A stretch of 64,000 bases of DNA. It comes from an uncultured Methylomirabilota bacterium. Its GTDB lineage: Bacteria > Methylomirabilota > Methylomirabilia > Methylomirabilales > 2-02-FULL-66-22. How positions within the stretch are numbered: the first letter of the stretch is position 1; each line of letters begins with the position of its first letter. The stretch covers positions 536,630 to 600,629 of the forward strand of contig CAWJHW010000004.1 of NCBI GenBank assembly GCA_963842855.1, given 5' to 3'. Made by a program: the position numbers and the translations under genes. The notes beneath the pieces are model-generated. The model was not told the origin of the DNA. It worked only from the letters and a program-made list of their open reading frames with translations, and did not search any database. This document shows, one piece after another, positions 33,201-59,613 of the stretch.

Positions 33201-33719
33201 GAACTTCTCGTCGAACTTCTCGTTCAGCTCCCGCTGCCACTGGAACGTCAGGTTCGCCGGGCAGACAATCAGCGTGCGCTCGGCCAGGCCCCGGAGTTTC
33301 AGCTCCCGGATGAGGAGCCCGGCCATGATGGTCTTGCCGGCGCCCGCATCGTCCGCGAGGAGGAACCGGACCCGGGCCAGCTTGAGGAGGGAATCGTAGA
33401 CCGCCTCAAGTTGGTGCGGGAGGGGATCTACGCGCGAAATGGACAGGCCGAAATAGGGGTCGAACTCGTACGCGATGCCGAGGGTGTAAGCCTGAAGACC
33501 GAGGCGCAAGAGTGCGCCATCGCCTGTGTAGGTGTAGGCGGCTCCGTGGATTCGAAGCGTTTTGATTTGCTCAGAGGTGAGGGTGACACTGCGGAAGCGC
33601 TCCGTCTGGACACCAACCAGGCCCAGGACCCAGGTATCGTTCCCCCCCTGGCGGATGGTTTCGACCCGCATGGGCTCGTGGAACAGCGAGCCATTCAGAA
33701 TCTGGCCGGGCTCTATCAT
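30276..33719 (-). CDS. SNF2-family helicase with C-terminal DUF3883 (restriction-endonuclease-like) domain
   Basis: LPHQLEAV...LLADDAGAGKTIMAG (motif I), VIVDEAHRM (motif II), LMLTATPHKG, ...ILVATEAAGEGINLQ...FNYDIPWNPNRLEQRMGRIHRYGQ (motifs V/VI). C-terminal ...GYDLTSLD...LRLIEVKGLG...EDRRDCYWLYVV. Confidence 0.85.
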   Translation of the reverse strand: MIEPGQILNGSLFHEPMRVETIRQGGNDTWVLGLVGVQTERFRSVTLTSEQIKTLRIHGAAYTYTGDGALLRLGLQAYTLGIAYEFDPYFGLSISRVDPLPHQLEAVYDSLLKLARVRFLLADDAGAGKTIMAGLLIRELKLRGLAERTLIVCPANLTFQWQRELNEKFDEKFVVLKGDDIRDQFGINQWMEQKQILTSLDLAKRTTILPGLKQVHWDLVIVDEAHRMSWTPPARKTARYALGELLRESSDHLLMLTATPHKGDPTNFSLFLQLLDEDAYADVRSIRQAMEQRRAPFYLRRTKEAMVYFPERQPDGTWAARKIFTKRITHTVDFTIDGDEFVLYRDVTRFVKQQSAKAAAQGDDPRARAVGFLMSLYQRRLASSAYAMHRSLENRSHRLQEGLRRADELLRTAPPEIPGPEEIEEMEEAERERLEALLEAITLAQNRHEAEEEIARLKELADQAKKVEEAGQEAKLAQLKTILKEQGFFDKPDQRLLIFTEFKDTLDYLAGNKLQGVPGKLRDWGFRVGVIHGGMKAGSRDEPGTRLYSEQQFKDGAIQILVATEAAGEGINLQSCHILFNYDIPWNPNRLEQRMGRIHRYGQIHDCLIFNFVATNTIEGRVLQKLLEKLQEIRDALDDDAVFNVVGEILPAAQIERILRAYYAGELGQEDMEDRLLRDVQEDRFRAICQNALEGLASKKLNLDMLIERRALAQERRVVPETIARFLREAAGHARYTLKPLASLPHSFDPGVTPTTLRQYETAPDRKLAALANKYPRLSTDRETAERHSLEWVTPGHPLFEALRRHVWETARDVLAQGACFYSVEHAAPARLDFYRARVVDGLGQVIHERLFAVEVAEGKEPKRQEPGALGNFSPGKAPETLPPVAHLPEARDWLTQGALSPFLDEVRQERVAEVDRIAAHVELSLTELMQREDRLIGRLAEETERGVEGAAGNLKQAEDRHAALMTRRERRRQELERQRSLSLQAVERIASVLVLPHPEREKPEVRRLRPDAETEAIAMRVAMEYERAAGRAVADVHEQNLGYDLTSLDTQSGELRLIEVKGLGGSTGTIGLTPNEKRVAEDRRDCYWLYVVTDCDAQPGLHVNKDPANLPWHEVKKVDHYWLSVDAVRQPMRVREEPPAPDGGVT

Positions 33720-33952
33720 CGGAGCAGAAAACCTTCAGAAGAGTCTGGGCGTCGTGGCCCCGCCTCTGCTAACGCGGGATCAATGCAGGACCGTGAACCA
33801 GAGGAGAGCGAACGCTCTCAGTGAACGCAATCGGGTAGGAAAGGGGAACCCGGGGGCGACACATTTCATCGGGTGTGGTATGCAGGTCGAAAAATGCCCG
33901 GGACAGAGAATATCGAAGATCGTGCCTGTCTGTCAATATGAACCAATGAACA

Positions 33953-34087
33953 GAGGACCGCCAGACAGTCTGCCCGCAGGGCTGAGCGGCCGCACCTACT
34001 TCAGGCGGGAAAACGCCCCTGAGATCCTGGAATCCAACCCGTTGCAGGAGAGTATGCAGACCTGAACGGAGTTTTTGGGGACGACAG
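33953..34087 (+). repeat. Repeat R, copy 1 (~135 nt, ends in hairpin plus T-run)
   Basis: GAGGACCGCCAGACAGTCTGCCCGCAGGGCTGA.CGG.CGCACCTACTTCAGGCGGGAAAACGCCCCTGAGATCCTGGAATCCAACCCGTTGCAGGAGAGTATGCAGACCTGAACGGAGTTTTTGGGGACGACA. It is shared with 37915-38047 and 48884-49017, all on the + strand. Confidence 0.8.
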
Positions 34088-34268
34088 GCATCTGGAGGGC
34101 CTGACCGCGAAACTGCGCAGTGGAGACACGGGCCGAGGGCGGGAGGCAATCCGAGCGACGATCGAAAACACCATGGTGGGCGAGGATGAGACGTTGACGC
34201 TCGCCGTGAAGCCGGAAGACCTCTTGGGGGCCCAGACAGCCATTGCACATTCAGGGTGCCGGGGGACC

Positions 34269-34405
34269 GGCACCAACGTTGTGCGCATGGTTCTGCCTGG
34301 GAAGACTTGCTCTGTTGGCGAGGAGAGCTTTCGCTGTGTTTATAAGGAGTTAGGTCCACATTCTATGCGCGATTGAACGGGCAGACAGAGTTTTTGTGGA
34401 CCACA
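34269..34405 (+). repeat. Non-coding repeat S, copy 1
   Basis: Matches the reverse complement of 9986-10122. It lies 180 nt downstream of R copy 1. Confidence 0.7.
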
Positions 34406-34807
34406 ACCGGACACCCGTAGAAGGCTAACCGATTGATTTGCCCGATGGGCGATTCCAATTCTTGGCGGCGGTTGCGCCCGATGCTGCGGGTCGGGATGCC
34501 GCAGGCGCTGTGTGGGGAGCCCGGCTCGGTCGGGCGCTCCGTCCCCCGCCGGGGACGTCGGCGAAGAATTGGGCCCACCCCGACGCAGAATCGAGGGGTT
34601 AGGCCCTAAATGGTGTCCGGTACCTTTTTCGCTATCGTGGTCGCGTTTGGGGTTGACAGTTAGGACAGCATTGGGTAGCCTTTTAGCGAACTGACCCCCC
34701 CTCGACCGGCGACTAGTGGCACCTGCAGTGTTGTCGACCTTTAATGCTGAAAAGCCATTCCGGAGCATTTGCACTGAGCGTGTAGGGTACCAACGGAGAA
34801 TTATCCG

Positions 34808-35824
34808 ATGATCACGCACGTCAAGGGCAGTCTGTTCGAATCACCCGCGAAGGTTCTCGTCAACACGGTGAATACGGTCGGCGTCATGGGGAGGGGTATT
34901 GCGAAAACCTTCAAAGAAATCTACCCGGAGATGTTCTCCCAGTACCAGCAGCTATGCGAGAAGCGAGAGCTGCAGACCGGAAAGCTCTGGCTATATAGGA
35001 CCGAACACAAATGGATACTCAACTTCCCGACCAAAGTCCATTGGCGTCAACCATCCAAGCTAGAGTACATCGAGCAGGGACTCGTCAAGTTCGTATCAGC
35101 CTACCCGGCTCTGGGCATCACCAGCATCGCCTTCCCGCAATTGGGGTGCGGGAACGGAGAATTGGACTGGGAAACGGCTGTCCGACCCCTAATGACGAGA
35201 TACCTCGGCCGACTTCCCATTGACACGTTCATCTACGAATACGAAGGGGAATTCGCCAAACCTGAACACAGGGATGTCGCGGCCATGAATGCTTGGCTGC
35301 GGAGCGAGCCGCGAACCCTGGCCTTTGAGGAGGTGTGGCGAGATCTGTGCGACCATGTTGGCATGGGATTGGACCTGAAGACGTGGGACGGCGAGGACGA
35401 TTTCCGAGTCATCATCACAGATCGACCAGAACATGGAATCCAAATCTGGTTAAGTTCCAAGAGCGTATGGGGGCACCTTGTCGCTTCGCTGACCCGGCTA
35501 GCTCTGTTGATTCCTGTTCAATGGCGTCCTCGGGTCATTCGGCCTGGAGGCATTTTCATACCGAAGGAGGCCATGCTGGATCTTTGGCAGAACATCCGGG
35601 CCTACGGATTCTGTGTGCCTCGCATTATGTCGCAGGGCCTCGATCTCTTTGCTCCGTATGTCATGGCCCTCCTTGACCGTCTCGATTATGTGAGGCGTGT
35701 TGAGTTATTGCCACAGACTGCAGGAGGCTTCGGCGAGAAAGAGGCTGCGTTGCAGTTGTTCGTTCCCCCCACTCCTCGACCTGCCAGATCATCGCAACCT
35801 GCCTTCGCGGTGCAGCGAGTGTGA
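34808..35824 (+). CDS. darG: Macrodomain protein, DarG-like antitoxin (ADP-ribosyl-DNA glycohydrolase type)
   Basis: VKGSLFESPAKVLVNTVNTVGVMGRGIAKTFKEIYPEMF...KWILNFPTKVHWRQPSKLEYIEQGL...ITSIAFPQLGCGNGELDW is the DarG-type macrodomain pattern. It is followed by a ~190-aa C-terminal domain, as in DarG. Confidence 0.8.
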   Translation: MITHVKGSLFESPAKVLVNTVNTVGVMGRGIAKTFKEIYPEMFSQYQQLCEKRELQTGKLWLYRTEHKWILNFPTKVHWRQPSKLEYIEQGLVKFVSAYPALGITSIAFPQLGCGNGELDWETAVRPLMTRYLGRLPIDTFIYEYEGEFAKPEHRDVAAMNAWLRSEPRTLAFEEVWRDLCDHVGMGLDLKTWDGEDDFRVIITDRPEHGIQIWLSSKSVWGHLVASLTRLALLIPVQWRPRVIRPGGIFIPKEAMLDLWQNIRAYGFCVPRIMSQGLDLFAPYVMALLDRLDYVRRVELLPQTAGGFGEKEAALQLFVPPTPRPARSSQPAFAVQRV

Positions 35825-36807
35825 ACGTCCCGAGGAAGCCGGACTCCGAGAGAATCAAAGCTCACATCAAGCGTCTCAAAGAGCAGCCTTGGTTGGGCGA
35901 AGCTCAGCGATGGTGGCCGGACTACTTGTTCAGAGTCGATGACATCCGTGCTGCTGCCACAATCCTCAACAGTGGGTACCTCCTCTCCCGGAAGGAAGCG
36001 CAGGATGCTGGGGTATTGGTCGTCAACTCCGCAAGTCCCGATGTTATCGCAGCCACAGCCGAACGATGGAAGCGTTATGTCCGTTTGTACTTTCGACCCA
36101 AGACGCCAACTCAATACCGCAATGAAGGCTTCCGGCCATCCCAGAATTACGCCCTTAGTGCTCATTGTCCCGTCCCCATCGTAATGCTCTTCGACGCAGG
36201 CGAGATTTTGACGCGATCGGATGCAGAATTCAGTGATGGAAACCTGGCAGCAGATGCGTCAACGGGCAAGGATTACGAGTTTCTCTGCGGAATCCCCTTC
36301 GAGAAGGTTTATCACGACAGAAGACTTGATGAGCCTGAGAAGAGGTCGATCATTTATCACCGTCATGCCGAGGTCATTGTTCCCAGCCGACTGGATCTGT
36401 CGTCGTTGCGCTTTATCGTTTGCAGGACACAAGCCGAATACGAAACGCTACAGCATCTCCTCGATCCAAAAGCACTCAAGCAATGGTCGAGAAGAATCAG
36501 CCAGAAGGCGAACATGCACTACCGTCTCTGGACATTCGTTGAACAGGTCGAACTTAGCAGTAAGCGAGTTCGCTTCAGATTCAATCCCTCATCCCTAACC
36601 CCTGGACCTTTCAGCGCTCGTGTGACAATCCGGGAAGACGCAACGGGCCAAAAGTACGTTTGGGAGAATGGTTCGTACCATGCGAATTCAAAGCTAGAGA
36701 TTAGCCTGGACGAGCTTCAACACCCAGAGAGCTATACTGTACGTCTAGAGCTTGACGATCAATTGGCCCACAGCAACCATTATGCGGAAGACAACTTGCC
36801 CTTCTGA
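35821..36807 (+). CDS. darT: DUF4433 / DarT-like DNA ADP-ribosyltransferase toxin with ~110-aa C-terminal extension
   Basis: LFRVDDIRAAATILNSGYLLSR..., YVRLYFRPKTPTQY, ...EFSDGNLA..., ...HRHAEVIVPSRLDLSSLRFIVCR match conserved DUF4433 blocks. The GTG start overlaps the macro gene stop (GTGA). Confidence 0.75.
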   Translation: MNVPRKPDSERIKAHIKRLKEQPWLGEAQRWWPDYLFRVDDIRAAATILNSGYLLSRKEAQDAGVLVVNSASPDVIAATAERWKRYVRLYFRPKTPTQYRNEGFRPSQNYALSAHCPVPIVMLFDAGEILTRSDAEFSDGNLAADASTGKDYEFLCGIPFEKVYHDRRLDEPEKRSIIYHRHAEVIVPSRLDLSSLRFIVCRTQAEYETLQHLLDPKALKQWSRRISQKANMHYRLWTFVEQVELSSKRVRFRFNPSSLTPGPFSARVTIREDATGQKYVWENGSYHANSKLEISLDELQHPESYTVRLELDDQLAHSNHYAEDNLPF

Positions 36808-36875
36808 ACCCGGGAAACCGAGAATTACCGAGCAAGGGGACGAGAGTCTGTAGGGGTGAACACCGACAGCAACTT

Positions 36876-37342
36876 ATGTGTGGCCGCTTCACTGTCGGCG
36901 CGACTGCCACGACCGCAGCCAAGCAGTTTCACCTAGCCGAACTCCCGCCGTGGACGCCACGCTACAACATTGCCCCCACCCAGGCAGTGACAACCCTCCT
37001 CAGGCCCTCCCCAGAAGCTGGCAGGCAATTCCGATTCCTACGCTGGGGCCTCATCCCCGTGTGGGCGGAAGGCCCAGCCGTCGGCTCCCGCCTGATCAAC
37101 GCCCGCGCCGAGACCGTGGCGACGAAACCCGCGTGGGCGCGATCCACCATCGCATGCCGGTGATCCTCAGCCCCACGGAATACGACCGCTGGCTTGATCC
37201 GAGCATCCGGGAGCCGGAAGTGCTCCAGCCCCTGCTCCGGCCCTTTCCTGCCGTCGAGATGACGGCCTACCCCGTGAGCGCATTGGTGAGCAGCCCCGCG
37301 AATGACAACCCCGGTTGCACGGAGCCTCTCCTTCAAGGCTGA
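36876..37342 (+). pseudogene. SRAP (YedK-like, SOS response-associated peptidase) with internal deletion/frameshift
   Basis: The N-terminus MCGRFTV...RYNIAPTQ...LRWGLIPVWA...LINARAETVATKPAW (catalytic Cys2) breaks at about 37140. A second frame resumes at ...IHHRMPVILSPTEYDRWLDP...YPVSALVSSP. About 80-90 central residues of the family are missing. Confidence 0.75.
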
Positions 37343-37383
37343 GAGGATGGCGAGGATTGCCCGGCAGCAGCAGGTTCGGGAGG

Positions 37384-37623
37384 CTAGTTCTTGACCTTGA
37401 GTTTGGCGTCGTTCTCGGCGATGAACTTCCGGATCTCGTCGGCCATGTCGAGGAGCTTCAGCCACTGCTCCTTGTATAGCGTGACCGGGAAGCGGCCGAG
37501 CCCGTAGACCGACACGCCGCCCTTGTCGCTGACCCGGATGTTCTCGCTGGTGGCGCGGGACTTCAAGGCCGCGTTCTCCGCACGGAGGCGTTCCAGTTGG
37601 GCCTGGAGGTTCTCGTCAACCAT
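37384..37623 (-). CDS. Hypothetical small protein (N-terminal coiled coil)
   Basis: 79-aa ORF MVDENLQAQLERLRAENAALK...GGVSVYGLGRFPVTLYKEQW... with a compact, plausible composition. No family recognised. Confidence 0.45.
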   Translation of the reverse strand: MVDENLQAQLERLRAENAALKSRATSENIRVSDKGGVSVYGLGRFPVTLYKEQWLKLLDMADEIRKFIAENDAKLKVKN

Positions 37624-37914
37624 TGGGGCTCCTTTCTTGAAGGGTTGGGGGACCGGCTGGTGATGCAGCAGGGCGTGTTACGTCGTGGGCCGCGCGTTCG
37701 TCCGTGCCTTTCTCTGTCCAGTCGGCGGGCCGGCGAGTTGTTCTTGTTCCTGGGCTGCTTCTTCGAATGCTGGTCCACCAACGCGGTGCCGGCGGGCCTG
37801 CCCGCCTTGGGTCCGCAGCACTGTCCCTAGCTGACCCCATAGAGCCTCCTCCGTCGGTCGCCACGGGGAGGGAGAACAGATCGGAGGGTACTCTTGCCCT
37901 CCTCGGCCTGTCAA

Positions 37915-38047
37915 GAGGACCGCCAGACAGACTGCCCGCAGGGCTGACCGGACGCACCTACTTCAGGCGGGAAAACGCCCCTAAGATCCTGGATTCAAAC
38001 CCGTTGCAGGAGAGTGTACGGGGCTGAACGGAGTTTTTGCGGACGAG
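37915..38047 (+). repeat. Repeat R, copy 2
   Basis: See copy 1. It is preceded by CCTCGGCCTGTCAAGA, which is shared with copy 3. Confidence 0.8.
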
Positions 38048-38943
38048 TGCGGCCCCTGGGCGGCATCCTCCCGAGCCTCGGGGGGAGTATCGCCCTCTCG
38101 GAATACGGGACCGGCACCGTGCAGCTCCCCGCCGAGGTGGCCGACCTGTTCCTCCTGTACCTGGAACAGCGCCTCTGGGAGGTCTGGGGCGCGGGGCGAC
38201 CCCGACTGGTGGCCGCCTGCCTGGCCGCGGCGAGGCGCGGCTCAAGTCTTGCGCGGCGGCCTGGTAAGTGATATAGATCACCCACATCCCACGGCTATCC
38301 ATGGAAGGGTGGAGCCGGCTCGGGATCGGCCCCCACGCTCTGTCCCGACCCCCCTGGCCCCTGACCCCCATTTTCCTTTGCGCGGTCACATCTCGCGAGG
38401 GTGGAATGGCTCCGGGCTCGGCGGGCCTTTTTCTTCACCAGATCTTAACGCCTGATCCCCATCCCCTGCGGTCAGGAGGCCTTTCTTCCCCCCATCCCCT
38501 CGTCCCCTTGTCTCCAAGTCTCCGTTTCTTCGATTCTCCGATGCACCCCTGCGCCCATGCACCTCGGCTCCTCTGCCGCTCCATCCCGTTTCTCCGGGTG
38601 CTCGGTGTCCCCTTGTCGCCTTGTCCCCATGTCTCCTTGTCCCTGTGTCATCGATCGGCAGCCCCCGTTCTCAGTGGAGGGAGCCTCGAGCACGCGCGCG
38701 CCGATTTTCGGTCACGGATCAGCGTTTTGTTCTCGGTAGAGTTGGGATGGACATTCGCTCGGCGGACGGCTTCCTGATGCAGCTGCGCGCACGGGCGAAT
38801 TCAGCGAAGTTTCTTTCAGAACCGACGTCCCCCATTACAACATGGCGTCCGTTCTCAATTGCTTGGCATCATACCCAGGGAGACGACCAAGTATAGGTGT
38901 GCGCGCGCAATCATGCGATGGAGCAAAGCTGAGGGCCGATGAT

Positions 38944-39393
38944 ATGGCAATGTGGTTGTATCAAATGACCGAAGGATCTCACTGGTCTCCGGAGCGGTAT
39001 AGGCAACAGGTTTGGGAAGGGAAGGAGATCGACTGGCCGGTCTCTCGTCTAGTGAAGGGTAATCTGCCCGATCCCGGCCCTGGTGATATGGTGGTGTTCT
39101 TCTTTGCGCCGACCCGGGACGGGGGAGGGATCTGTTCCGACCCTGGATTCTACGGTTGGGCCATTATCGAAGAATTTTATGAGGACCACAGAGCAAAGCC
39201 CAAGGGCTATCGCATGATGTACCGACCAGCCCCACCTTCGGACCTACGGAAGATGGCACCTTCCTGGGATCCGAAGGAGTTGCCGAAGTTGGTGGACATG
39301 ATTCGGGGGAAAGTGGCTCAGGGGGCTCTTTGGCACATCCCGTCCAAGCTCTTCGCCAATATCCGCCAAACAGTCCTTGGCGCGAAGAGGTGA
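38944..39393 (+). CDS. PUA-fold (EVE/ASCH-like) small protein, first gene of a four-gene operon
   Basis: From the internal ATG: MAMWLYQMTEGSHWSPERYRQQVWEGKEIDWPV...PGDMVVFFFAP...GFYGWAIIEE. This shows the W-L-Y...W...GD-hydrophobic...G-aromatic-G-x-A pattern of EVE-like readers. Assignment is tentative. Confidence 0.5.
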   Translation: MAMWLYQMTEGSHWSPERYRQQVWEGKEIDWPVSRLVKGNLPDPGPGDMVVFFFAPTRDGGGICSDPGFYGWAIIEEFYEDHRAKPKGYRMMYRPAPPSDLRKMAPSWDPKELPKLVDMIRGKVAQGALWHIPSKLFANIRQTVLGAKR

Positions 39394-39485
39394 GGACTAC
39401 GGTGTGAAATTGCTGTCGACGAAAGATCTCCTTTGGGGCGAGATGGTTGGCCCGATAAAGGTATTCGCATAGGGGGCGAGGACAA

Positions 39486-40754
39486 ATGGAATTCAAATTC
39501 ATCCTTGCAGCGGACGTTCACCTTGACAGCCCCCTGGTGGGCCTGTCGCGCTACGAGGGAGTCCCCCTGGATGTACTTCGGGGCGCAACTCGCGAGGCCT
39601 TCGGTAACCTAGTTTCGATCGCGGCCGTAGAGAAGGTTGCCTTCATGCTCCTTTCGGGTGATCTCTACGATGGGGAGTGGAAGGATTACCACACCGGACT
39701 GTTCCTCACGCACCAGCTCTCCCGTCTCCGAGAGGCCGGCGTGAAGGTCTACACTATCTACGGTAACCATGACGCCGAGAGCCGGATGACCAAGTCCCTC
39801 CGTCTGCCAGATAACGTGAAAGTTCTGTCCACGAAATCCCCGGAGACCGTCTTGTTAGAGGAACTCGGGGTGGCAATTCACGGCCAGGGGTTCGCTAAGC
39901 GAGACGTCATGGAGAACCTCGCCGAACAATACCCGGAAACCCGGAAGGGCCTTTTCAACATTGGCATGCTTCACACGGCACTCACCGGCGCTGAAGGGCA
40001 CGAGCCGTACGCTCCCTGCACCCTGGGGACACTCCAGTCGAAGGGATACGACGTGTGGGCGCTAGGGCATGTCCACGCACGGAAAGTGCACAGCGAGGAA
40101 CCTCTGATACTGTACCCGGGGAACACCCAGGGGCGGCACGCCCGGGAGACTGGTCCTAAGGGATGCACCCTGGTTTCCGTGGAAGACGGCCGGGTGGCGG
40201 CGCTTGAGCATCGGAACCTCCACGTGGTGCGGTGGGAGGTGATTCCCGTGGACGCCTCCGGCCTGTCTGCCGCGGGTGATGTCGTCGACGCTGCCGTAGC
40301 CACGGTGGAGGCAGAATCTGGCAAGGGAGGCGGAGAGGTTCTTGCGGTAAGGCTCGTCATCGAAGGAGCATGCCAGGCCCATCGTGAACTGGTGGCCGAT
40401 CCTGAGAAGTGGACCGCGGAAGTTCGAGCTGCCGTTGCTGCTGCTACTGGTGAGGGGGCCTGGGTGGAGAAGGTGAGGATTCTGACAGCAGCGGAGGCAG
40501 ACCCTTCCATCTTAAGGTCAGGTTTGGATCCCCTGGCGGATCTGGTCCGATACATCGATGGGCTATCCGCGACGGACGAACTCGGGACCCTGCTGGCTGA
40601 AGACGTCAGGTCCCTAAGGGAGAAGCTTCCGCCAGAAGTTTTTCAAGCGGAGGGAGTGGTCACTCCTGATTCAATGCACGCGGTGTCCAGGCTGCTGGAA
40701 CACGCCAAAGGGATGCTTGTTCAACGGATTCTGGCTTCGGGGGCGGGGAAATGA
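39486..40754 (+). CDS. SbcD/Mre11-like metallophosphoesterase (YhaO-type DNA repair exonuclease)
   Basis: FILAADVHLDS, LLSGDLYDG, IYGNHD, ...GMLH..., ALGHVH are calcineurin-like phosphoesterase motifs I-V. The stop overlaps the next start (ATGA). Confidence 0.8.
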   Translation: MEFKFILAADVHLDSPLVGLSRYEGVPLDVLRGATREAFGNLVSIAAVEKVAFMLLSGDLYDGEWKDYHTGLFLTHQLSRLREAGVKVYTIYGNHDAESRMTKSLRLPDNVKVLSTKSPETVLLEELGVAIHGQGFAKRDVMENLAEQYPETRKGLFNIGMLHTALTGAEGHEPYAPCTLGTLQSKGYDVWALGHVHARKVHSEEPLILYPGNTQGRHARETGPKGCTLVSVEDGRVAALEHRNLHVVRWEVIPVDASGLSAAGDVVDAAVATVEAESGKGGGEVLAVRLVIEGACQAHRELVADPEKWTAEVRAAVAAATGEGAWVEKVRILTAAEADPSILRSGLDPLADLVRYIDGLSATDELGTLLAEDVRSLREKLPPEVFQAEGVVTPDSMHAVSRLLEHAKGMLVQRILASGAGK

Positions 40755-42731
40755 GGTTGATCTCTCTGGACTTGATCGCGTACGGGAACTTTACGAACCG
40801 CAGCCTCGTGTTTCCAGAAGGCAAGCGGTTGTATGTCATCTACGGTCCGAACGAGGCGGGAAAGAGCACGTGCATCAGGGCGCTCCGGGGCTTTCTCTAC
40901 GGGATCCCGGAGACCACGAGGGATGACTTCTTGCATGAGAGTAAGCAGCTCCGGGTTGGAGGCATCCTGTTGCGTTCGGATGGGGAGAAACTTTCTATCG
41001 TCAGGCGGAAGGGTCGCAAGGACACGCTCCTTGGCCCTGACGGACGCCCGCTACCGGAAGAAACAGTGCGATCCTTTCTGGGCGGGGTCGACAGGGAGAC
41101 GTATGTCCGTGTGTTTGGGATGAGCCGGGACGAACTGATATCCGGCGGGCAAGCCCTCATGGAAGGAAAGGGCGGTGTGGGCGAGAGCCTCTTCGCCGCG
41201 GGCCTCGGTGGGGCGGATCTCAAAAGTCTACTTGAAGCGCTGGAATCCGAGGCACAAGAACTGTTTAAGCCGGGTGGGAGTAACCCGAAGTTAAACCTGG
41301 AAACGAGGTCTTACAGAGAATTGAAGAGCAAGATCCGTGAGCTTTCTCTTCTCCCCAAGGACTGGGAGGAACTCGATGGCACAGTTTCCGCCCTTGAGGA
41401 TCGTTCCAAACAGCTCAAGGAGCAGATTGCGCGGCTGTCGGCGGAGAAAGATCGCCTTGGGCGGGTCAGCGACGCCTTGCCTATCGTTGCGGAACTCAAA
41501 GAGCATCGGAAGACACGCGCAGACATGGGAGAAGTGAAGGTTCTCCGGGAGGGGTTCTCCGCGGAGCGGGCCAAGGCCCAGATGGAGATCGCAGGGGCCC
41601 TGGCGGCCGAGAAGACCGCAAGCGACAGGATCGGCGAAATCGATACGGAACTCGGGAACCTGATCGTTCCAGAGGGTCTCTTGGCCCAAGAGACGACAGT
41701 GCAGGGCTTGGTCGAAGGGTTAGGTAGCGTCCTGAAGGCCCAACAGGACCTGCCCCGGGTTCAGGGGCAAGTGCTCGAGGCCATTCAAGCTGCCAAAGGG
41801 ATCCTCGCTGAACTTCGCCCAGACCTCACCCTGGAGTCCGCTGGTGTCTTGCGCCTTACAGTGGAACGAGTCGACCTGATCAGGCGTTTGGCGGAGGAGC
41901 ACGGCAAGCTGGCGATCAGGCGACAGTCCGCCGCCGACAAGATATCGGAGAATGCCCAAAAACTTGCCGAGGCGGAGAGAAAACTTTCTGGCCTCCCGGA
42001 GACAAGGAACGCATCAGAACTGGAGGGATCGGTGGGCACCGTGCGCAGGAAAGGTGATCTGGTAAAAGCCCACCTCGATGCGCAGTTCGAGGCCCACGGT
42101 GCCAGAGAAAATGCCGAGGCGGCCCTGAAGGGATTATCGCTTTGGTCAGGAACTCTGGAGGCTCTTGCGTCTCTGCCACTCCCCCCCGAAAAGACGATCG
42201 ATGAGTTTGAAAAAACCTTCGAGGCGCTCGACGACAGCCTGAAAAAGATACGAAATGCCCTCGCCGAGACAAAGGAGAAGATCGGAGAGATCGACGGCAA
42301 CTTGAGGACCCTGAAGCTGGCGGGTGAGCCCCCCACTGAGGAGGATCTCACGGCTGCCCGTGGTCACCGGGAGCGGGGTTGGGCTCTCGTGCGATCGGCA
42401 TGGCTGGACGGGAAGCGGGACGAAGTTGCGGAAACGACTTTTGATCCATCCCTTCCTCTGGAGCAGGCATACGAAAGAAGCGTCCTGAATGCCGACGGCG
42501 TGGCTGACAGGATGCGCCGGGAGGCGGAGGGGGTGGCCCACAAGGCAGGTCTCCTCGCCGACCGCAGGCTTCAGCAGGAGCGAGGAGAAGACCTGTCCCG
42601 GGAAATCGAGCAGCTCGAAGAGCAGCGGAAAGGCGTGGAAAAAGAATGGACCTCCCGGTGGGCCCCTGCCGGGATTGTCCCGATGTTGCCCCGGGAAATG
42701 CGTGCCTGGATGGCCAACTGGAAAGAACTAG

Positions 42732-44208
42732 TACTACTGTGTCATAAACGTTCTGGCCGGGAGCCGTTCGCTCCGCAGGCCGGGCAGTAGGGGAGCCCCG
42801 CCACGAGCATGCGCGCGTGCAGAATCCGCTGCGTGGCAATGGACGCCGGGTTATGCCGTTGCGGCCTTGCGGGGGGAGCCCCGCGGGACGAAACGCCGGG
42901 GTAGCGGAGCGGGCTTGAGGAAGGCAACAGCCTGAGGGGGGGAAAGGCGGCCACGCTCGGCCGCGAGGAAGCAATACGCGGCCATACATAAGCCCCCGTG
43001 GTGATGGAAGCCCCTCCAGCCTCGCCCCTCGTAGTGATCGAGCCCAAGCTCATCCTTGAGCTCCTCGAAGTCCCGCTCGATCCGCCAGCGGATCTTCGCG
43101 AGCGAGACGAGTTCCATGAGATCCACGTCCTCGGGTACGGTCGAGAGCCAGTACTTCGTGGGATCCGGCGTCCCCGCCGGCCACTCGATGACGATCCATT
43201 CGATGGGCCGGGGTTCGCTGCGGAGCTCGTCGCGGTGCGCGGGGCGGACCCGTGCCGCCGCGAAGCGCGACACCAGGGTGCCGTTCGTCCCCTCGCGCCA
43301 CCGGACCGTCTTCCACGCCTTCGTCGGAAGCAAGTCGGCGAGGGTGCGCGCCGAGACGGGTGGATGTTGCGCAGCTCTTCGCAGGCGCGTGGGAGGCCGT
43401 CCCCGCCCCGTGCGGCGCCCGGGCGGGAGGGGCTCCTTTCCCGGCGGCCAGACACTCGTCTCGCCCTTGATCCCGAGCACGTACGAGAAGCCGCGCTCGG
43501 TGAGCCCCTCGCGGAAGTCCGTGGTGTCGCCGTAAGCGGCGTCCGCCACCACCGGAGCGGGTGGCAGATCCTCCGCGAGCAAAGCATCGATCTCCTCGAG
43601 CGCCATCCGCCACTTCTCGAGGAAGACAACGTCCCGCGGGATGCCTGCCAGCGCCCGGCGCTTGGGATCCTTCGCCCACTCGTCGGGAAGATACAGATGC
43701 CAAGCCGCCGGCACGCTCATCGTCTTGTTCGCGAGCGAAACGGAAACCGCCACCTGGCAGTTCTCCTGCTTGCCCAACACGCCGCAGTATTGCCGGGCAA
43801 CGCCGACCGAATGCTTCCCCTTCTTGGGGATCGCGGTGTCGTCCACGACCCACGCCGCCACGGGCGCGTGACGCTCGAGCTGCGCGAGGGCGACGTCCCG
43901 GGCCACGGCGAGCACCGCGCGATCCTCCCAGGGTGCCTTCGCCACGAAATGGTGCATGGACTGGTGGGCGCGACTGACATGCCGCGGATCGATCTTCGCC
44001 GCCATGGGCTCCACGCTCTTCCGCTCCCCGGACAGCAGCAGTCCGGTCAGATACGCCTCGAGCGGCCACCGGCGGTCGGCGTGGCCGACCGCCTCGGCCA
44101 GTCGTGTGACGTAGCGGTCGAACCGGATGCGGTCCACAGCGCGAGTCACCATGGGTCATTCTGTCACTCCGGGCGATCCGCCGTCAAGTATTTTATGACA
44201 CAGTAGTA
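42732..44208 (-). mobile_element. IS701-family insertion sequence (1477 bp) with CTAG target duplication
   Basis: Terminal inverted repeats TACTACTGTGTCATAAA (42732-42748) and TTTATGACACAGTAGTA (44192-44208). CTAG at 42728-42731 and 44209-44212. Confidence 0.8.
42851..44152 (-). CDS. IS701 family (DDE) transposase
   Basis: 433 aa with ...RKSVEPMA...WVVDDTAIPKKG.HSVGVARQYCG.LGK..NCQV.VS...VVADAAYG...IRWRIERDFEELKDELGLDHYEGRGWRGFHHH, characteristic of IS701. Confidence 0.8.
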   Translation of the reverse strand: MVTRAVDRIRFDRYVTRLAEAVGHADRRWPLEAYLTGLLLSGERKSVEPMAAKIDPRHVSRAHQSMHHFVAKAPWEDRAVLAVARDVALAQLERHAPVAAWVVDDTAIPKKGKHSVGVARQYCGVLGKQENCQVAVSVSLANKTMSVPAAWHLYLPDEWAKDPKRRALAGIPRDVVFLEKWRMALEEIDALLAEDLPPAPVVADAAYGDTTDFREGLTERGFSYVLGIKGETSVWPPGKEPLPPGRRTGRGRPPTRLRRAAQHPPVSARTLADLLPTKAWKTVRWREGTNGTLVSRFAAARVRPAHRDELRSEPRPIEWIVIEWPAGTPDPTKYWLSTVPEDVDLMELVSLAKIRWRIERDFEELKDELGLDHYEGRGWRGFHHHGGLCMAAYCFLAAERGRLSPPQAVAFLKPAPLPRRFVPRGSPRKAATA

Positions 44209-45897
44209 CTAGTACGAGAGGCGTCGGAGATCCGGAAGTTGGACGGCCAAATCAAGAAGATCGCTGGAGAAATCGAAGAAAGCAGACACACGCTTCTCGA
44301 TCAGCTTGCTGCCCTGGGAGAGCCAGCCCCTCCGGAAGGATCCTCCCTGGAGGCAATCCTCCTTCGGGCCGAGGAGGTTATTCGATCTGCGAAGGACCTG
44401 AAGGTTAGCCGTGAGGGCCTCGAGAAGGAGATCGACGAAGGCATAAAGGGGAAGGCCAAGGCGGAAGAGGAAGAAAGGAAGGAAGCCGCGGCGTCCGCAC
44501 AGTGGGACAAGGACTGGGCGGCGGCCGTCAAAGGACTGCGCGAAGGTCTCTCGGTAACGGCAGCCGTCGCTTTTCTGGACAAGTGCTCCGCCCTCTCGAA
44601 GAAGCTGGACGACGCTGAGAAGGACAAGGTCCGCATAGAAGGCATGAAAAGCGACATCAAGGAGTTCGGGGACAATGTGGCGGGATTCCTCGCACGGCAT
44701 GCGCCCGATCTCGCTGGCATGCCGGTGGACCAAGCCGTACGGGAAATGTCTTCAAGGGTGTCCAAGGCCAAGGCGGATGCGGCCTCAAGGGCGAAGCTAT
44801 CCGGCGAACGGGCTACCAGGAAAAGGGACTTGGACAAGGCGAGGGAGACGATCCGGCGAACGTCCGAGCAGCTCGCAGCCCTCCGCCGGGAAGCCGGATG
44901 CGAGACCGATGAGGGAATTCCCGACGCGGAGGCGCGCTCGGAGTCAGCTCGTTCCCTGGATGAAAGAATGGCTGAACTCACTGGGCAAGTTCTGGTGCTG
45001 GCCGCCGGTAGGAAGCTGGAGGAATTTGCCGGGGAGGTGGAGGAAAAGAATCCTGAGCAGATCCGGCAGGAACTCGCAAAGCTAGAGACGCACCTGAGCG
45101 AGGTGCAGGAAGAGTACGGGCGGGTCTGGAAAAACTCGGGCGCTGCAAGTGAACGGCTCCGGGCGATGGATGGCCGCCCTGACGCCGCTCGGGCTGCCCA
45201 GGAGGCTCAGGAGACGTTGGTGTTTTTGAGGGAGAACGTGGAGCGGTATCTTCGCATCAGGCTTGGGGCAATGATCCTTCGGACCCAGATCGACCGATAC
45301 CGCGAGAAAAGTCAGGGGCCCCTGCTGAAGCGAGCGGCGGAGCTGTTCACCCTGGTGACCCAAAGAAGCTTCGTTGGCCTTGAGCCTGATTATGGCTCTA
45401 GCGACGAACCCGTCCTGGTCGGGGTGCGCGAAAACGGGGAGAGAGTAGGCATTGCTGGAATGAGTGACGGGACACAGCCCCAGCTTTACCTAGCTCTTCG
45501 ACTCGCCTCACTAGAGAGATTCATCGCTGGCGGAGAGACGCTTCCCCTTTTGGTGGATGATGCGCTGGTCGACTTCGACGATGATCGTACCCAGGCAGCC
45601 ATGGAGCTTTTGGCAGACTTGGGCGAAAAAGGCCAAGTCATCTTCTTCACGCACCACCAGCACATGGTAGAGTTGGCAAGAGAGGCTATAGAGGAACCGA
45701 TTCTTCATATTCAGAATCTCGTCGAGACGGGAGGAAGGGGTTGACCCGGACAGTCCTGCCCGATTACCTTATCTGTCTGCTTGCGCTTTCCCGAGTCGGT
45801 TGGACGCACAAGTTGAATTGAGCCTGAAACGCGCTGAGCGCCTGCGGCATGCAATCTTGAGAAATGCCTTCTCTGTCGTGGAGGAGAGTCAACTGCA

Positions 45898-48801
45898 ATG
45901 AAATATGAGCTACCAGAAAACCACGGCCTTTCTGCTCCGATCATCGCCCATCTCGTATTCAAAGATGGCGACAAGCCTTTGCTTACGGACGCTCAATTCG
46001 AGGCGCTTCGAGCCGGCATTGGTTGCGGCAAGAGCGGGCTTGTTGTCTCCCCGACGTCTACCGGGAAGACGCAAATCGCACTCTGGGCAATCGCCAGTGG
46101 CATCGAAGACGGCTGCAACACAGTCTATCTGGTGACTCACCGAGCTCTGGCCAAACAAAAGTTCGATGACTTTAAGACACTTCTTTTGAGAACCTTCCTC
46201 GGAGGTAACGGGTCTGCTCTAGTCATGGCGACGGGGGATTATGTCGAGGACGCGGATGGCGCCACCCCGCCCGAACCGCTCAGGGCGTCTCTTCTGGTTG
46301 CGACCTATGAGAAGTACCTTGCTCTCCTGGCCGCCTCAGGAATTCCCGGTGACATGACCTCCACCGTTTTGGTCTGCGACGAGATGCAGCTTATCGGCGA
46401 TGAGCACCGTGGGCAAAACGTGGAGGTCCTCTTGACCCTAATTCGAAACGCTGGTTGGCGGCAGTTCGTAGGGCTCTCGGCCGTTCTGGACCCCAAGGAC
46501 GCGAAGGACCTCGCGGACTGGCTTAACGTGACTCTTGTTGACCAGCATACGCGGGAGAAGCATCTACGGTATGAATGCTGGACGCCCAAAGGTATCGCGG
46601 CTGTAACTTCCTACAGTCCAGATGATATTCAGGAGGGACTCCCTGCGCCTGTCGGTGTGGTGCTAGACCCACTGTCAATACTTACTTTTCTCCTGAATCA
46701 GAAGTCACGGCCAGTGCCAATCATAGTTTTCTGCATGCGTAAGCAGGACACCTACAACCTTGCCGAGAGGTTTCTGGCCGGTCGTGGAAAAGGCGTGCAA
46801 CGACAGCTTTCACTCGCCTTTGAAGCTCTGCCGGAAACGTCCGCTAACAGGTTCCTTACCAGGGCGGTAGCTCAGCGGGTCGCTATTCATAATGCGGATC
46901 TCACCGATGAGGAGCGGGAAATTGTCGAGGAACATCTTCTCTGGGGAAAGTTGGACGTCGTGTTCGCGACATCAACCTTGGCGGCCGGTGTGAACTTCCC
47001 TTTGGGTGCGGCCATCTTCGCAAGCTGGTATCGTTGGGATTTCGATAGGCGAGGGAACGTGCCCATCGAGAGCGCTGAATTCCACAACATGGCGGGACGT
47101 GTTGGTCGGATGGGGTTCGAGCACAAGCAAGGCCAAGTCATATTCGTGGCGACTAGCGAAGCTGAGATTCGCATCGCTAGGCGATACCTCACCCTCGGCG
47201 CCATGCCGTCCCTGGAGCCGCGAGTTGCTCCGGAGCGCTTCAACCAACTCGTGCTCCAGTTAACCGCATCCGGTCTATGCAATTCCAGAAATGGCGCAGA
47301 ACAGCTAGCCTGTACCACATTCAGCGCCCTACGAGAGCAGGATAGAAACAACGCCGCCTTTGCTAGGTGGCCTGCGCTGTTGGCTAATGCGATCACCGAA
47401 TTGCTCGATGAGGGACTGCTGATCGAGACGAGTACCGGGAAGCTTAGCGCTACTCCCGTGGGCAGGGCGGTTGGCCATAGCGGTCTGCTACCGGAAACCG
47501 GTGTGTTCCTTATGAACTATGCGTCAAACAAAGCAGAGAAGCTCGCTCAGTACCTGCCGACCCCAGGTAACACTGGGGAGGCGCCACGCCTTGCGTTCCT
47601 GCTTTTCTGTGCATGCTTCTCTGCGCCTGAGTTCCGACCATGCGACGGAAAGTCCCCCACGCGTTTCCTGCCGTGGCCTCTGGACAGGGATACACTGTTC
47701 GATGCCGACCAATACCGAGACGATCTCCCTGAGCCGGTGTGGCAGGCGGATTTGTTTCCAATTAACGCCGCGAAGCTGAGCGTGGATTGGATAGAGGGGG
47801 CGGACATTGCTGCACTCGAGGCGAGCCTCCCACAACTCAGTGCAGGGATGCTCCGAGACATGTTCCGAAACCTGGCCTGGGTGCTGCAAGGTTTCGCTTC
47901 GACCGTCGCCGCGGCGGTTGATCCAAGGACTCCCGCCGGCTGGCGCCCGAAAGCACTGCGTCGACCGGACGCGAGGTTGGATCTTCTTGCTAGGCTTCCG
48001 CGCGTTGCTCGCCGACTTAGCTTTCGCGTCGCCGAAGGATTGCCGGACGACGTCCTCTGGATGACGGGTATAGTGGCCCCGGATTCGGAGTACAGGATAT
48101 CCCGCGACGAGATTCTCGCGCTACGAAACCTTGGATACAAGACGCCCCAGCAAGTAATGCTTGGTTCCCCGCAAGCCAACCAAGCTCGGATTACTGCTCT
48201 TGCCAAGGCGAAGCCGGCGCCAGAGGTCAAGGCGAACTGGCTTCGGGACACCTGTCGAAATTGGAAGATAATACAACGTAAGCGAGCCGCGGAGAGGCAT
48301 CTGAAGAGAGCTCGCCGTTGCCCACACGTTGGGCTCGTCGAGGACTTTTACGGAACCAAGGGAATGGCCTTCGAAAGGGTCTTGGAAGCAATTCTGTCTG
48401 TTCTCAAGATTGCGTACGAGAGACTCGACGACAAGACCAAGACAGGGGCTCCCGACTACCTGATTCGACTCGAGGACTCGCCGCCGCTCATTCTGGAGCT
48501 CAAATCGAAAGAGGGTGACAAGCTTGTCGACTACAACAAGGCAGTGGAAGTACTTGCTGCGTCAGAGATTCATGGCTACGCGGCGACCTTCTGCGTGACC
48601 CTATGCCACCCGGGGGTAGATCCTAGCGTACCGATGGCGATCGCGGCATGCGGCCGGTTGAGCGTCGTAGAAAGCAGCGATCTGGGCGAAGCCCTACTGC
48701 GTGTCTGCGAAGGCTCGCTTACCCAGAAACAGCTTTGGCATTGGCTGGCCAGCCCCGGACAGGCACTGGCTGCGGATCTCCCCTTTCGCGATTACGTCTA
48801 G
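45898..48801 (+). CDS. Ski2/Hel308-like DExx-box helicase fused to a C-terminal PD-(D/E)xK nuclease-like domain
   Basis: VVSPTSTGKTQIAL (motif I), LVCDEMQLIGDEHRG (motif II), GLSAV, ...VVFATSTLAAGVNFP..., ...HNMAGRVGRMG (motif VI). C-terminal ...GAPDYLIRLEDSPPLILELKSKEG fits D...E-x-K. Visibly lower GC than the flanks. Confidence 0.75.
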   Translation: MKYELPENHGLSAPIIAHLVFKDGDKPLLTDAQFEALRAGIGCGKSGLVVSPTSTGKTQIALWAIASGIEDGCNTVYLVTHRALAKQKFDDFKTLLLRTFLGGNGSALVMATGDYVEDADGATPPEPLRASLLVATYEKYLALLAASGIPGDMTSTVLVCDEMQLIGDEHRGQNVEVLLTLIRNAGWRQFVGLSAVLDPKDAKDLADWLNVTLVDQHTREKHLRYECWTPKGIAAVTSYSPDDIQEGLPAPVGVVLDPLSILTFLLNQKSRPVPIIVFCMRKQDTYNLAERFLAGRGKGVQRQLSLAFEALPETSANRFLTRAVAQRVAIHNADLTDEEREIVEEHLLWGKLDVVFATSTLAAGVNFPLGAAIFASWYRWDFDRRGNVPIESAEFHNMAGRVGRMGFEHKQGQVIFVATSEAEIRIARRYLTLGAMPSLEPRVAPERFNQLVLQLTASGLCNSRNGAEQLACTTFSALREQDRNNAAFARWPALLANAITELLDEGLLIETSTGKLSATPVGRAVGHSGLLPETGVFLMNYASNKAEKLAQYLPTPGNTGEAPRLAFLLFCACFSAPEFRPCDGKSPTRFLPWPLDRDTLFDADQYRDDLPEPVWQADLFPINAAKLSVDWIEGADIAALEASLPQLSAGMLRDMFRNLAWVLQGFASTVAAAVDPRTPAGWRPKALRRPDARLDLLARLPRVARRLSFRVAEGLPDDVLWMTGIVAPDSEYRISRDEILALRNLGYKTPQQVMLGSPQANQARITALAKAKPAPEVKANWLRDTCRNWKIIQRKRAAERHLKRARRCPHVGLVEDFYGTKGMAFERVLEAILSVLKIAYERLDDKTKTGAPDYLIRLEDSPPLILELKSKEGDKLVDYNKAVEVLAASEIHGYAATFCVTLCHPGVDPSVPMAIAACGRLSVVESSDLGEALLRVCEGSLTQKQLWHWLASPGQALAADLPFRDYV

Positions 48802-48883
48802 CGTCAGCCGGGCGACTGATCAGACGTGGAGTGCGGGACCCGGCCGTTTCTTTCGTGTCAAGGTAGATTCCTCGGCCTGTCAA

Positions 48884-49017
48884 GAGGACCGCCAGACAGC
48901 CTGCCCGCAGGGCTGATCGGACGCACCTACTCCAGACAGGAGGCACCCCTGAGATCCTAGAATCCAACCCTTTGCAGGAGGGTATGCAGACCTGAACGGA
49001 GATTCTGAGGACGACAA
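48884..49017 (+). repeat. Repeat R, copy 3 (T-run degraded; preceded by a 40-nt motif also found at 8936-8975)
   Basis: See copy 1. The upstream motif GGGACCCGGCCGTTTCTTTCGTGTCAAGGTAGATTCCTC (48835-48873) matches GGGACCCGCCCGTTTCTTCGCTGTCAAGGTAAATCCCTC (8936-8975). Confidence 0.8.
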
Positions 49018-53914: not shown

Positions 53915-54241
53915 GCCTAACATGGCCATCGACTCGGACCCTTGCAAGCGGGCTTCGCCCGCCCGCTTCGGGCCGGTCATTGCCGTCGATGCGCCGACGC
54001 GCGCGGCCGTCGCTCCGGTCCAGTCGGATGACCCCGGGTGGCTCCATCCCCCCGAGCCCGGCGGCGCACGCGAGGCTGGCCGCGGACCGCGCCGGCGCGA
54101 GGCAGTCGGCGCATCGGGGCGGCGGATAGACCTCCGCGTGCTGGCGCCGCTCGCGCGGCCCATCACGCGGATGCAGCCGCCACCGGCTTCGGCGAGCTAG
54201 CTCGCCATCGCCCGCGCGGCTGATCCGCCGCCCCGTTGGGC
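53915..54241 (+). repeat. attC-like recombination site, giant composite form (327 bp)
   Basis: Starts with GCCTAAC (RYYYAAC) 45 nt after the upstream stop and ends with GTTGGGC (GTTRRRY). It contains long hairpin H1 (GATGCGCCGAC...GTCGGCGCATC) and hairpin H2 (GGGGCGGCGG...CCGCCGCCCC). Confidence 0.5.
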
Positions 54242-54258
54242 AGACATTCGGAGGTCCC

Positions 54259-54960: not shown

Positions 54961-54965
54961 GTGCT

Positions 54966-55228
54966 GCCCAACATGGCCGTGAAGGTGTCGGCCCACGCTG
55001 CCACGGGTCGTGCTTGCGCACGCCCCGCACCACCGTGTCCCGCAGCGTACGGTCGACGATGCGCCGACGCGAGCGCTCGCCGCGCCGGGTAGCGGACAGC
55101 TTCGAGCCAGGCCCTTGGGCTGGTGATAGACAGTTGCTCAGTTGCCCCATCGACGCCTCCGACCGGCCCGGCGGCGCCTGGCAGTCGGCGCATCGGGGCG
55201 GCGTCTTGGGGACGCCGCCCCGTTGGGC
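54966..55228 (+). repeat. attC-like site, composite form (263 bp)
   Basis: GCCCAAC at 54966, 6 nt after the stop, and GTTGGGC at 55222. H1 has the same 11-nt arms but a different interior. H2 is reduced to GGGGCGGCG-tcttgggga-CGCCGCCCC. Confidence 0.5.
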
Positions 55229-55486
55229 ACGAGGAGCGGAGGTCCTGCCTTCCGCGAAGACCTCGCCATGAATGGTCAGTGATAGAGATTTCCAGAACCA
55301 CGCGGTCTTCAGTGAGTTGGAACGGTACATTGCGTTCTACAAGCACTTCGCTGATTCAGTGTTCAGCTTCGTCTCGCTGGGTACAAGGGCCATCTGCAAC
55401 ATCGACTCTTACCTCCTTTCCTCGATCCAGGGAACACTGACATCAATACGAACGATTCTTAGCGACGGGCGGATCAACGACGCCTA

Positions 55487-57659: not shown

Positions 57660-57676
57660 AGATGAAGGAGAACGCG

Positions 57677-58261: not shown

Positions 58262-58288
58262 AGAGCACGAAAACTCGCGCGCGCGGCA

Positions 58289-58367: not shown

Positions 58368-58376
58368 GGGCGCCAC

Positions 58377-59234: not shown

Positions 59235-59241
59235 GCGACCT

Positions 59242-59591: not shown

Positions 59592-59613
59592 ACCAAGGAG
59601 AACAAGTAGGGGC

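Follow-up and report, generated by a model that had tools for sequence, protein, structure and literature searches.

We analyzed a 64,000-nucleotide (nt) stretch of DNA, called the window here, from an uncultured Methylomirabilota bacterium (GenBank assembly GCA_963842855.1, contig CAWJHW010000004.1, forward-strand positions 536,630 to 600,629), and focused on a repeat, R, that stands among its defense genes. A preliminary description of the window had reported three same-strand copies of about 135 nt, which were borne out at the positions claimed: R1 (33952-34086), R2 (37914-38048) and R3 (48882-49016) all lie on the plus strand, belong to the 135-base class and are 89.6% (R1/R2), 87.5% (R1/R3) and 80.9% (R2/R3) identical in global pairwise alignments. 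A profile (nhmmer) built from all known copies of the family found no fourth copy in the window. Genes for DarG and DarT and a SRAP fragment lie between R1 and R2, and an operon with PUA, SbcD-like, SbcC-like and helicase genes lies between R2 and R3. R had been treated as a whole unit; this did not hold, as R2 reaches 117 nt further 5', both in 12 metagenome loci and in an orthologous locus, and the only complete unit in the window is the one at R2 (37797-38048). The features of the three copies are as follows.

33952-34086, plus strand: R1, a 5'-truncated copy
33962-33972: head palindrome of R1, CAGACAGTCTG
34032-34077: attC-like hairpin of R1, ATCCAAC / CCGTTGCAGG / loop / CCTGAACGG / A / GTTTTTG
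34078-34086: terminal motif of R1, GGGACGACA
34087-34266, plus strand: conserved extension after R1 (180 nt), about 97% common to three metagenome loci (L002, L007 and L013), with the final motif CCATTGCACATTCAGGGTGCCGGGGGA
37797-37913, minus strand: 5' domain of R2, with promoter, leader hairpin, Shine-Dalgarno (SD) sequence and ATG
37914-38048, plus strand: R2, the R part of the complete unit, its terminal motif mutated to GGACGAGT
37914-37909 and 37890-37885, minus strand: predicted promoter of R2, with the -35 box TTGACA, an 18-nt spacer and the -10 box TACCCT
37853-37846, minus strand: SD sequence of R2, GGAGGAGG, with the ATG at 37840-37838
48835-48873, plus strand: preR, a separate multicopy 39-nt module with two sharp boundaries
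48874-49016, plus strand: R3 plus 8 nt of the 5' domain; 1 nt deleted, hairpin degraded, terminal motif GATTCTGAGGACGACA
8936-8983, plus strand: second copy of preR, running 8 nt into the R 5' domain (CCCTCCTC) before it breaks off; after the stop of a DUF6282 gene

Several finer points of the preliminary description concerned the ends of the copies. The hairpin said to end each of them (CCGTTGCAGG...CCTGAACGG, then AGTTTTTG) is present in R1 and R2, the two copies in which the AGTTTTTG tail was confirmed, but is weakened in R3 (CCCTTTGCAGG; GATTCTG). The TGTCAAG(A/G)G repeats ahead of R2 and R3 are real, and TGTCAAG is the -35 box read backwards. The motif ahead of R3 does recur at 8936, past the stop of the gene ending at 8895 (chance expectation, 0 matches); it is preR, which begins 33 nt past the helicase stop codon and stands in for the 5' domain ahead of R3. 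The stretches after R, described earlier as lacking convincing reading frames, do have features: the conserved extension and a second repeat, B, follow R1, and an antisense helix-turn-helix (HTH) transposase fragment follows R2.

Next, we used the 23-base R core as a query against metagenome contigs and obtained matches on 12 contigs from peat and wetland metagenomes. These 12 loci have in common a unit of about 264 nt, with homology running about 130 nt further 5' than R and matching the sequence upstream of R2; one R-bearing contig, of 111 kb (L006), is annotated by NCBI as Candidatus Methylomirabilota. The 3' end is identical in all independent contexts (...GGAC(G/C)ACA), and many independent contigs break exactly at ...GGACGACA in every run, with differing flanks beyond. 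The 5' limits, counted from the core, form a nested series: R1 (-6 nt), R3 (-20 nt), L006 (-86 nt), R2 and L001 (-133 nt), L002 and L013 (-180 nt), and L003, L004 and L005 (beyond -410 nt). Because the terminus is always kept while the other side, which leads into an integrase gene (see below), is cut at varying distances, R1 and R3 hold only the last 135 to 147 nt of the unit and the promoter is found only in R2. In the peat metagenome contigs placed on the window, the depth of R was 10 to 40 times that of its unique flanks. No genuine match was found in two scans of representative and isolate genomes (185,579 genomes); two hits were rejected as chance because the family profile scored them at an E value of about 0.015. 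This lineage has no member among the representative genomes that were searched. Two scans of viral collections returned none. R is the 3' part, and the most abundant end-piece, of a larger, lineage-specific, multicopy dispersed repeat.

The part of the unit that lies 5' of R is best viewed in minus-strand orientation. In each of the ten full copies, an invariant CCCTGCGGGCAGACTGTCTGGCGGTCCTC contains the 11-bp palindrome CAGAC-N-GTCTG and is followed by TTGACA, an 18-nt spacer and TA(C/A)C(C/T)T, with the pattern and spacing of the hexamers invariant and the sequence of the spacer variable, and then by a leader hairpin, the SD sequence GGAGGAGG and ATGGGG. From its sequence, this block looks like a working sigma-70-type promoter with a ribosome-binding site. 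The -10 box is missing in R1 and R3, and the -35 box is also missing in R1. Minus-strand genes lie downstream of the predicted promoter: a bacterioferritin gene in L006, a DUF5615 pair in L013 and, 260 nt downstream at R2, a small gene (37384-37623, minus strand; 79 amino acids [aa], MVDENLQAQLERLRAEN...GRFPVTLYKEQW...; no Pfam match) that is 97 to 98% conserved in the orthologous locus.

Longer copies run on into an integron-integrase gene. The last 81 residues of such an integrase lie beside the unit in L003, L004 and L005 (TIGR02249, E = 2e-36, profile positions 235 to 315 of 315), and in two further loci, L026 and L027, the ATG inside the unit opens an in-frame, 114-aa truncated IntI (P0006) in which MGSARDSAPDPRRA... 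is fused to the integrase C terminus. Past this remnant come GTTAGCC (ATAGTTAGCCGTC) and then cassettes with attC-like sites, read by eye; the arrangement is that of an integron with an inverted integrase and is the same in pseudogene or remnant relatives (L028 and L029). An energy-based attC scan returned canonical sites in L028, but L026 and L029 yielded no site. Among relatives of the integrase fragment, the 120 closest are without exception open reading frames (ORFs) of 74 to 139 aa (proteins P0007-P0125 among them). At least some are frameshifted integrase pseudogenes (L028, 3201-4240), in which the last ORF has the internal Met of HH-M-DES as its start, hence the recurrent length of 79 aa. 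R as integrase coding sequence was itself rejected, since NCBIfam scans of the three minus-strand frames matched the last 81 residues only. The window encodes no integrase gene.

We then compared the hairpin at the 3' end of R (ATCCAAC / CCGTT-G-CAGG / 12-nt loop / CCTGAACGG / A / GTTTTTG) with integron attC sites. The attC sites of L028 and L029 read GCCTAAC AAC GGCTTGCAG... and ...CTGAACCGG AGC GTTCAGT, and the R arms match the L029 site at 12 of 13 and 10 of 11 nt, a similarity equaled by 6 of 500 dinucleotide shuffles of R (P about 0.01). Folded as single-stranded DNA, the hairpin has a z score of -2.5 and a bulged G (canonical sites, z = -2.1 to -4.8), and its arms are palindromic, as expected of attC. 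The 5' core box of R1 (ATCCAAC) fits RYYYAAC, and that of R2 is TTCAAAC; the 3' box GTTTTTG keeps GTT but not RRRY, and in R3 it is GATTCTG. A simple attC scan gave false positives inside genes (such as the VIT-like gene of L001), and only intergenic hits with canonical cores were used; candidate attC sites also occur in L001/L012 and in L013, of which only the intergenic site of L001 was inspected. In the other features of an attC site, the spacer, the length, the pairing of the boxes and the crossover position, the R hairpin departs from the canonical form, as set out below, and for this reason we regard it as attC-derived and not as an attC site.

The unit also evolves differently from its surroundings. 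The R2 locus has an orthologue in L014-L023; relative to one of these (L015), the window differs at 58 of 252 positions in the unit (23%) and at 15 of 504 in the flanks (3%), with the shift in rate exactly at the two ends of the unit, 37797 and 38048. L001 and L008 represent one locus (99% identity), and 17 of their 26 differences fall within the unit (17/264, versus 9/2,342 outside). The differences between these two cluster in patches that match other copies, and the L008 form GACAGG-GGGCACCCC is that of R3. Because the unit diverges by 23% against 3% in the flanks and the patches match other copies, we read this pattern as exchange between copies, so that the patchy changes would be the product of gene conversion. 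Repeated replacement at a single site may be an alternative.

Two further repeat families have a tip like that of R. The members of the first in the window are as follows.

34267-34405, plus strand: B1, 139 nt, terminal motif GAGTTTTTGTGGACCACA, with a sharp right boundary at 34405
9986-10124, minus strand: B2, inverted relative to B1 and 90% complementary to it, terminus pointing outward; adjoins an IS66 TnpC fragment

B1 has 5 to 20 times the depth of its flanks in metagenomes, and family C was seen in L001, L004 and L005. R, B and C have only their last 20 to 30 nt in common (GAGTTTTTG.GGAC(G/C)ACA). The B2/B1 pair encloses 24.4 kb with NucS-like, FokI-like, DUF499/DUF1156, Schlafen/AlbA, PHP-AAA and SNF2/NOV_C genes. 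Close to B1, another short multicopy repeat (34584-34651; depth of 160 to 220 versus about 10 in the flanks) contains GGGGTTAGGCCCTAA, an integron core-like palindrome; it lies 200 nt upstream of DarG, and in other genomes a 34-nt link connects it to the beginning of family B.

The three R copies had been proposed to partition the region into cargo modules. R blocks do stand between variable modules, but the edges of the modules lie beside R and not inside it. Four peat metagenomes hold 33700-34650, 37382-38198 and 48832-49016 but show no depth across two segments, one at about 34.65 to 37.3 kb with DarG, DarT and the SRAP fragment and the other at about 38.2 to 48.83 kb with the PUA, SbcD-like, SbcC-like and helicase genes, except for an IS701-like element in the second. 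Since the defense blocks are absent where the R blocks are kept, they are variable cargo between conserved, R-containing blocks. The edges of the variable blocks are 150 to 500 nt away from R (at about 38.2 kb and not 38.03 kb, and at about 37.3 kb and not 37.8 kb). In agreement with this spacing, the first 150 nt downstream of R2 match the orthologous locus at 97% identity, and divergence sets in only beyond them, where the orthologous locus has an HTH transposase fragment and an IS3, not the operon. An empty-site allele for the 10.8-kb block appeared as one 23-nt joint (run X24), which was not confirmed on recheck, and an apparent joint between R and 33700 proved to be an artifact of the range used for mapping. 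The R blocks are conserved scaffolding between variable defense modules, not the cut sites of the modules. The IS701-like element, of 1,485 bp (42728-44212), has a DDE_5 transposase on the minus strand (42851-44152) and splits the SbcC-like gene (40751-42790 and 44239-45744); in the four metagenome runs its depth was 17 to 176, with contigs of exactly its own length.

Taken together, we consider it somewhat less than an even bet (probability of about 0.45) that R is multiplied debris of integron promoter and recombination-site DNA, kept similar by exchange between copies and acting here as scaffolding and homology. This explanation is put first because in the longest copies the repeat continues into a promoter and the truncated gene of an integron integrase. 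In minus-strand order, the ancestral unit would have consisted of a sharp terminus (TGT(C/G)GTCC.CAAAAAC), a short attC-like hairpin, a body of about 60 nt, the invariant block with the palindrome CAGAC-N-GTCTG, a sigma-70-type promoter, a leader with SD sequence and ATG, and the truncated integron-integrase gene. One fixed end together with nested other ends suggests one-ended copying; rolling-circle, one-ended or reverse-transcription-type copying would each yield such fixed-plus-ragged ends. The present role of R may be passive, in that the copies would supply homology for rearrangement and, at R2, an outward promoter directed toward the minus-strand gene at 37623-37384.

Integron platforms (intI-Pint-attI) offer a close comparison for the longest copies. 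In plus orientation, these copies consist of a minus-strand integrase, its promoter and about 135 nt up to a sharp junction with variable DNA. Some 205 nt separate the junction from the start codon, and the arrangement, which fits in L026, matches that of a classical platform. Unlike a platform, the R-linked integrase is a 114-aa remnant with the attI-like GTTAGCC and cassettes on its other side, the neighboring genes are wrongly oriented for cassettes, and the unit is present in tens of copies, whereas integron platforms are normally single copy. For R itself, the comparison is with integron attC sites. The Vibrio VCR are species-specific, homogeneous attC repeats of about 123 nt in sedentary chromosomal integrons, and the R copies resemble them as same-strand repeats of about 130 nt, 80 to 90% identical, between accessory genes. 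Like an attC site, the R hairpin is imperfectly palindromic and has a bulged base and AAC...GTT triplets, its arms are close to the sites of related integrons, and a canonical array shares the window with R. It differs from attC in its spacer, boxes and palindrome, in conservation past the crossover and in its nested 5' limits; the whole 135-nt R has no fold (z of about 0), and the modules between R copies are 3 to 11 kb long instead of small single genes. A third comparison is with the mosaic intergenic repeats BIME/REP, BOX, ERIC and Correia, which are likewise modular (in R: preR or 5' domain, head, alternative bodies and a common tail), intergenic and of high copy number, with a possible contribution of promoters and a mosaic evolution. 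R differs from these in that it is not palindromic overall, has one fixed and one ragged end and is continuous with an integrase remnant.

A number of observations weigh against an origin from integron debris. The hairpin has no central spacer to speak of (0 and 1 nt on its two sides) and its palindromic part is 46 nt long, whereas attC sites span about 55 to 140 nt and have a central spacer that stays unpaired between their R and L boxes, and the eight canonical sites that we examined have spacers of 1 to 3 and 3 to 5 nt and lengths of 61 to 85 nt. Only 3 bp (AAC/GTT) pair in the R boxes. The shared sequence runs 9 to 12 nt past the GTT crossover position, to ...GGAC(G/C)ACA, and the divergent block between orthologous loci stops there as well. 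The similarity of the arms to attC was tested post hoc, and the exchange between copies is read from mosaic patterns. A full-length integrase with an R-type upstream region was not found, and it is for this reason that we can only infer the ancestral form. The genes beside the terminus in L001 and L026 face the unit, unlike cassettes beside attI, and families B and C have no link to an integrase. Moreover, we know of nothing that accounts for tens of copies of integron platform DNA.

The strongest alternative, which we nevertheless hold to be unlikely, is that DDE transposons of the TnsB/TniA/MuA type left R, B and C behind as solo ends, in which case the terminus would be the transposon tip, the nested limits would be later internal deletions and the integrase fragment would be cargo or a target close to that end. 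Transposons of this type have the termini 5'-TGT...ACA-3', and this alternative was kept alive because of the sharp TGT...ACA tip, the inverted B pair and the truncated transposase genes that abut the tips. The ACA outer boundary is sharp in all copies of the three repeat families; B2 and B1 are inverted 139-nt copies with their tips outward around 24.4 kb of defense genes; the 470-nt unit of L001 also has inverted tips; and the abutting genes are those of the IS66 TnpC and the HTH fragment. The tip TGTCGTCCTCAAAAAC... resembles the inverted repeat IRi of Tn402, with the first 6 nt identical and about 14 of 25 positions shared. R resembles the ends of Tn402/Tn5053- or Tn7-like elements in its sharp TGT...ACA terminus within a long, complex end and in its association with an integron integrase and defense cargo, but differs from them in lacking a partner end, a target duplication and tni or tns genes and in the orientation of the integrase to the tip, which is opposite to that in Tn402. 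No target-site duplication was found at B2/B1 or at the L001 unit, no R copy has an inverted partner in the window or the metagenome loci, and no TnsB/TniA-like gene was found in the window. The only transposase near B2 is of the IS1634 type by eye (Pfam DDE_Tnp_1), and tens of solo ends without one intact element would be unusual. R as the terminus of a known insertion sequence (IS) or miniature inverted-repeat transposable element, a possibility raised in the preliminary description, is likewise contradicted by the missing inverted partner, target duplication and transposase and by the nested 5' limits.

Candidate owners of these ends were also rejected. The IS1634-like transposase at 10278-11915 has no far end matching B, the IS3 of L014 has inverted repeats that differ from the tail motif, and an origin as a group II intron end was rejected because neither R nor preR gave any Rfam hit, even at E values up to 10. 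A Tn402-like IRi was not found beyond the integrase stop in L003-L005.

It is quite improbable, in our view, that the R copies are working, noncanonical integron sites, with the DarTG and PUA/SbcCD/helicase blocks as very large cassettes of a chromosomal integron whose array goes on at 54 to 60 kb. R2 and R3 do lie downstream of plus-strand operons, in the orientation of canonical attC sites and cassette ORFs, the hairpin is attC-like, both blocks are missing from metagenomes that keep the R blocks, and the core-like motif GGGGTTAGGCCCTAA occurs 200 nt upstream of DarG in a multicopy 65-nt repeat. However, the variable blocks do not end at the GTT of R, every copy conserves 12 nt past the GTT, the R3 copy has GAT in place of GTT, and the hairpin lacks a spacer and is too short for attC. 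In addition, the window encodes no integrase, and the sole apparent empty-site joint is 23 nt long and was not reproduced. A broader version, to which we give the same low weight, would make R, B and C a new class of integron-type site, with a short attC-like hairpin and a conserved 12-nt tail that replaces the core, which would let a chromosomal integron of this uncultured peat lineage capture whole multigene defense systems as giant cassettes and would spread by one-ended copying, which in turn would account for the fixed end and the nested ones.

Yet more doubtful is the proposal that R is part of a mobile regulatory element, with an outward minus-strand promoter and operator and possibly a plus-strand small RNA or terminator, kept because it drives its neighbors. 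The hexamers and the distance between them are conserved although the spacer sequence is not, the palindrome upstream of them is invariant, and minus-strand genes begin downstream in several loci (L006, R2 and L013); but R1 and R3 lack the -10 box, R1 also lacks the -35 box, no structure signal was detected, and the sharp terminus and the copying would be left unexplained. The small RNA suggested in the preliminary description found no backing: Rfam gave no match to R (whole window at the gathering score, and 33.5 to 39 kb at E values up to 10), a tRNA and tmRNA search gave none, and single-sequence folds of R on both strands had z scores of -0.95 to +0.57. RNAalifold, run on five full units and both strands, gave an unfavorable covariation term, with 1 to 2 compensated pairs of about 80. 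The intrinsic terminator suggested there fared no better, as a terminator scan does not report the hairpin.

A protein-coding origin, with R as an orphan 3' gene end (...LQESMQT*), can be practically dismissed: the quoted reading frame exists, and an open frame ends inside R in R1, R2, L002 and L006, but a frameshift breaks the frame in R3 and L008, most substitutions between copies are nonsynonymous (by our own count), and no protein family was matched in word-indexed and exhaustive HMMER searches of 5.8 billion and 1.84 billion proteins, which returned only spurious ORFs of 41 to 221 aa over other R copies and chance hits to repeat proteins with FGRNYFNRPSAPE. Among the latter, the match of the R peptide GRTYFRRENAPE to P0126, P0127 and P0137, which have 5 to 11 copies of FGRNYFNRPSAPE, was rejected as a chance motif match inflated by repetition.

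Integrons are usually viewed as single platforms that capture small, single-gene cassettes. Here, what appears to be a piece of an integron platform (promoter, start codon, integrase remnant and attC-like hairpin) occurs as a high-copy repeat at the seams of a defense island, beside a canonical cassette array. If the copies still recombine, they would link the integron machinery to the assembly of multigene defense islands; if they are inert, decayed recombination sites would serve as scaffolding and homology tracts for the rearrangement of islands. Repeats of the R type also show why such regions assemble poorly from metagenomes.

The cassette array lies downstream of R3, and the R blocks are just upstream of it, in the same orientation. 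It spans 53982-60260, is of the integron type, has no integrase in the window and contains an IS3-type transposase (55709-56707). Three repeats of about 290 nt and one short one, at 54244, 55235, 57662 and 59594, end in CCCCGTT(A/G)GGC and have plus-strand ORFs between them. Its canonical sites are as follows.

58289-58367, plus strand: canonical attC-type site (GCCCAAC...GTTAGGC), context and not R
60198-60260, plus strand: canonical attC-type site (GCCTAAC...GTTAGAC), single-strand fold z = -2.1

Elsewhere, the left 12 kb of the window are mostly mobile-element debris. Transposase genes or fragments lie at four places, as follows.

893-2086: IS110 family
8676-9965, minus strand: IS66 TnpC, C-terminal fragment
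10278-11915: DDE_Tnp_1 gene, IS1634-like by eye
50898-51881: IS1595 family

Group II intron domains D1-D4 were found at 2906-3077 and 7377-7550 (126 and 105 bits), with split reverse-transcriptase/maturase ORFs at 3136-3957 and 6587-7480; domains V and VI were not detected, and these introns are probably nested or truncated. Finally, three pairs of direct repeats with 75 to 92% identity (23683-23837/28015-28169, 28941-29044/30285-30388 and 27937-27984/30429-30476) lie in or at the ends of large minus-strand defense genes and may be what the preliminary description called helicase-end stacking.

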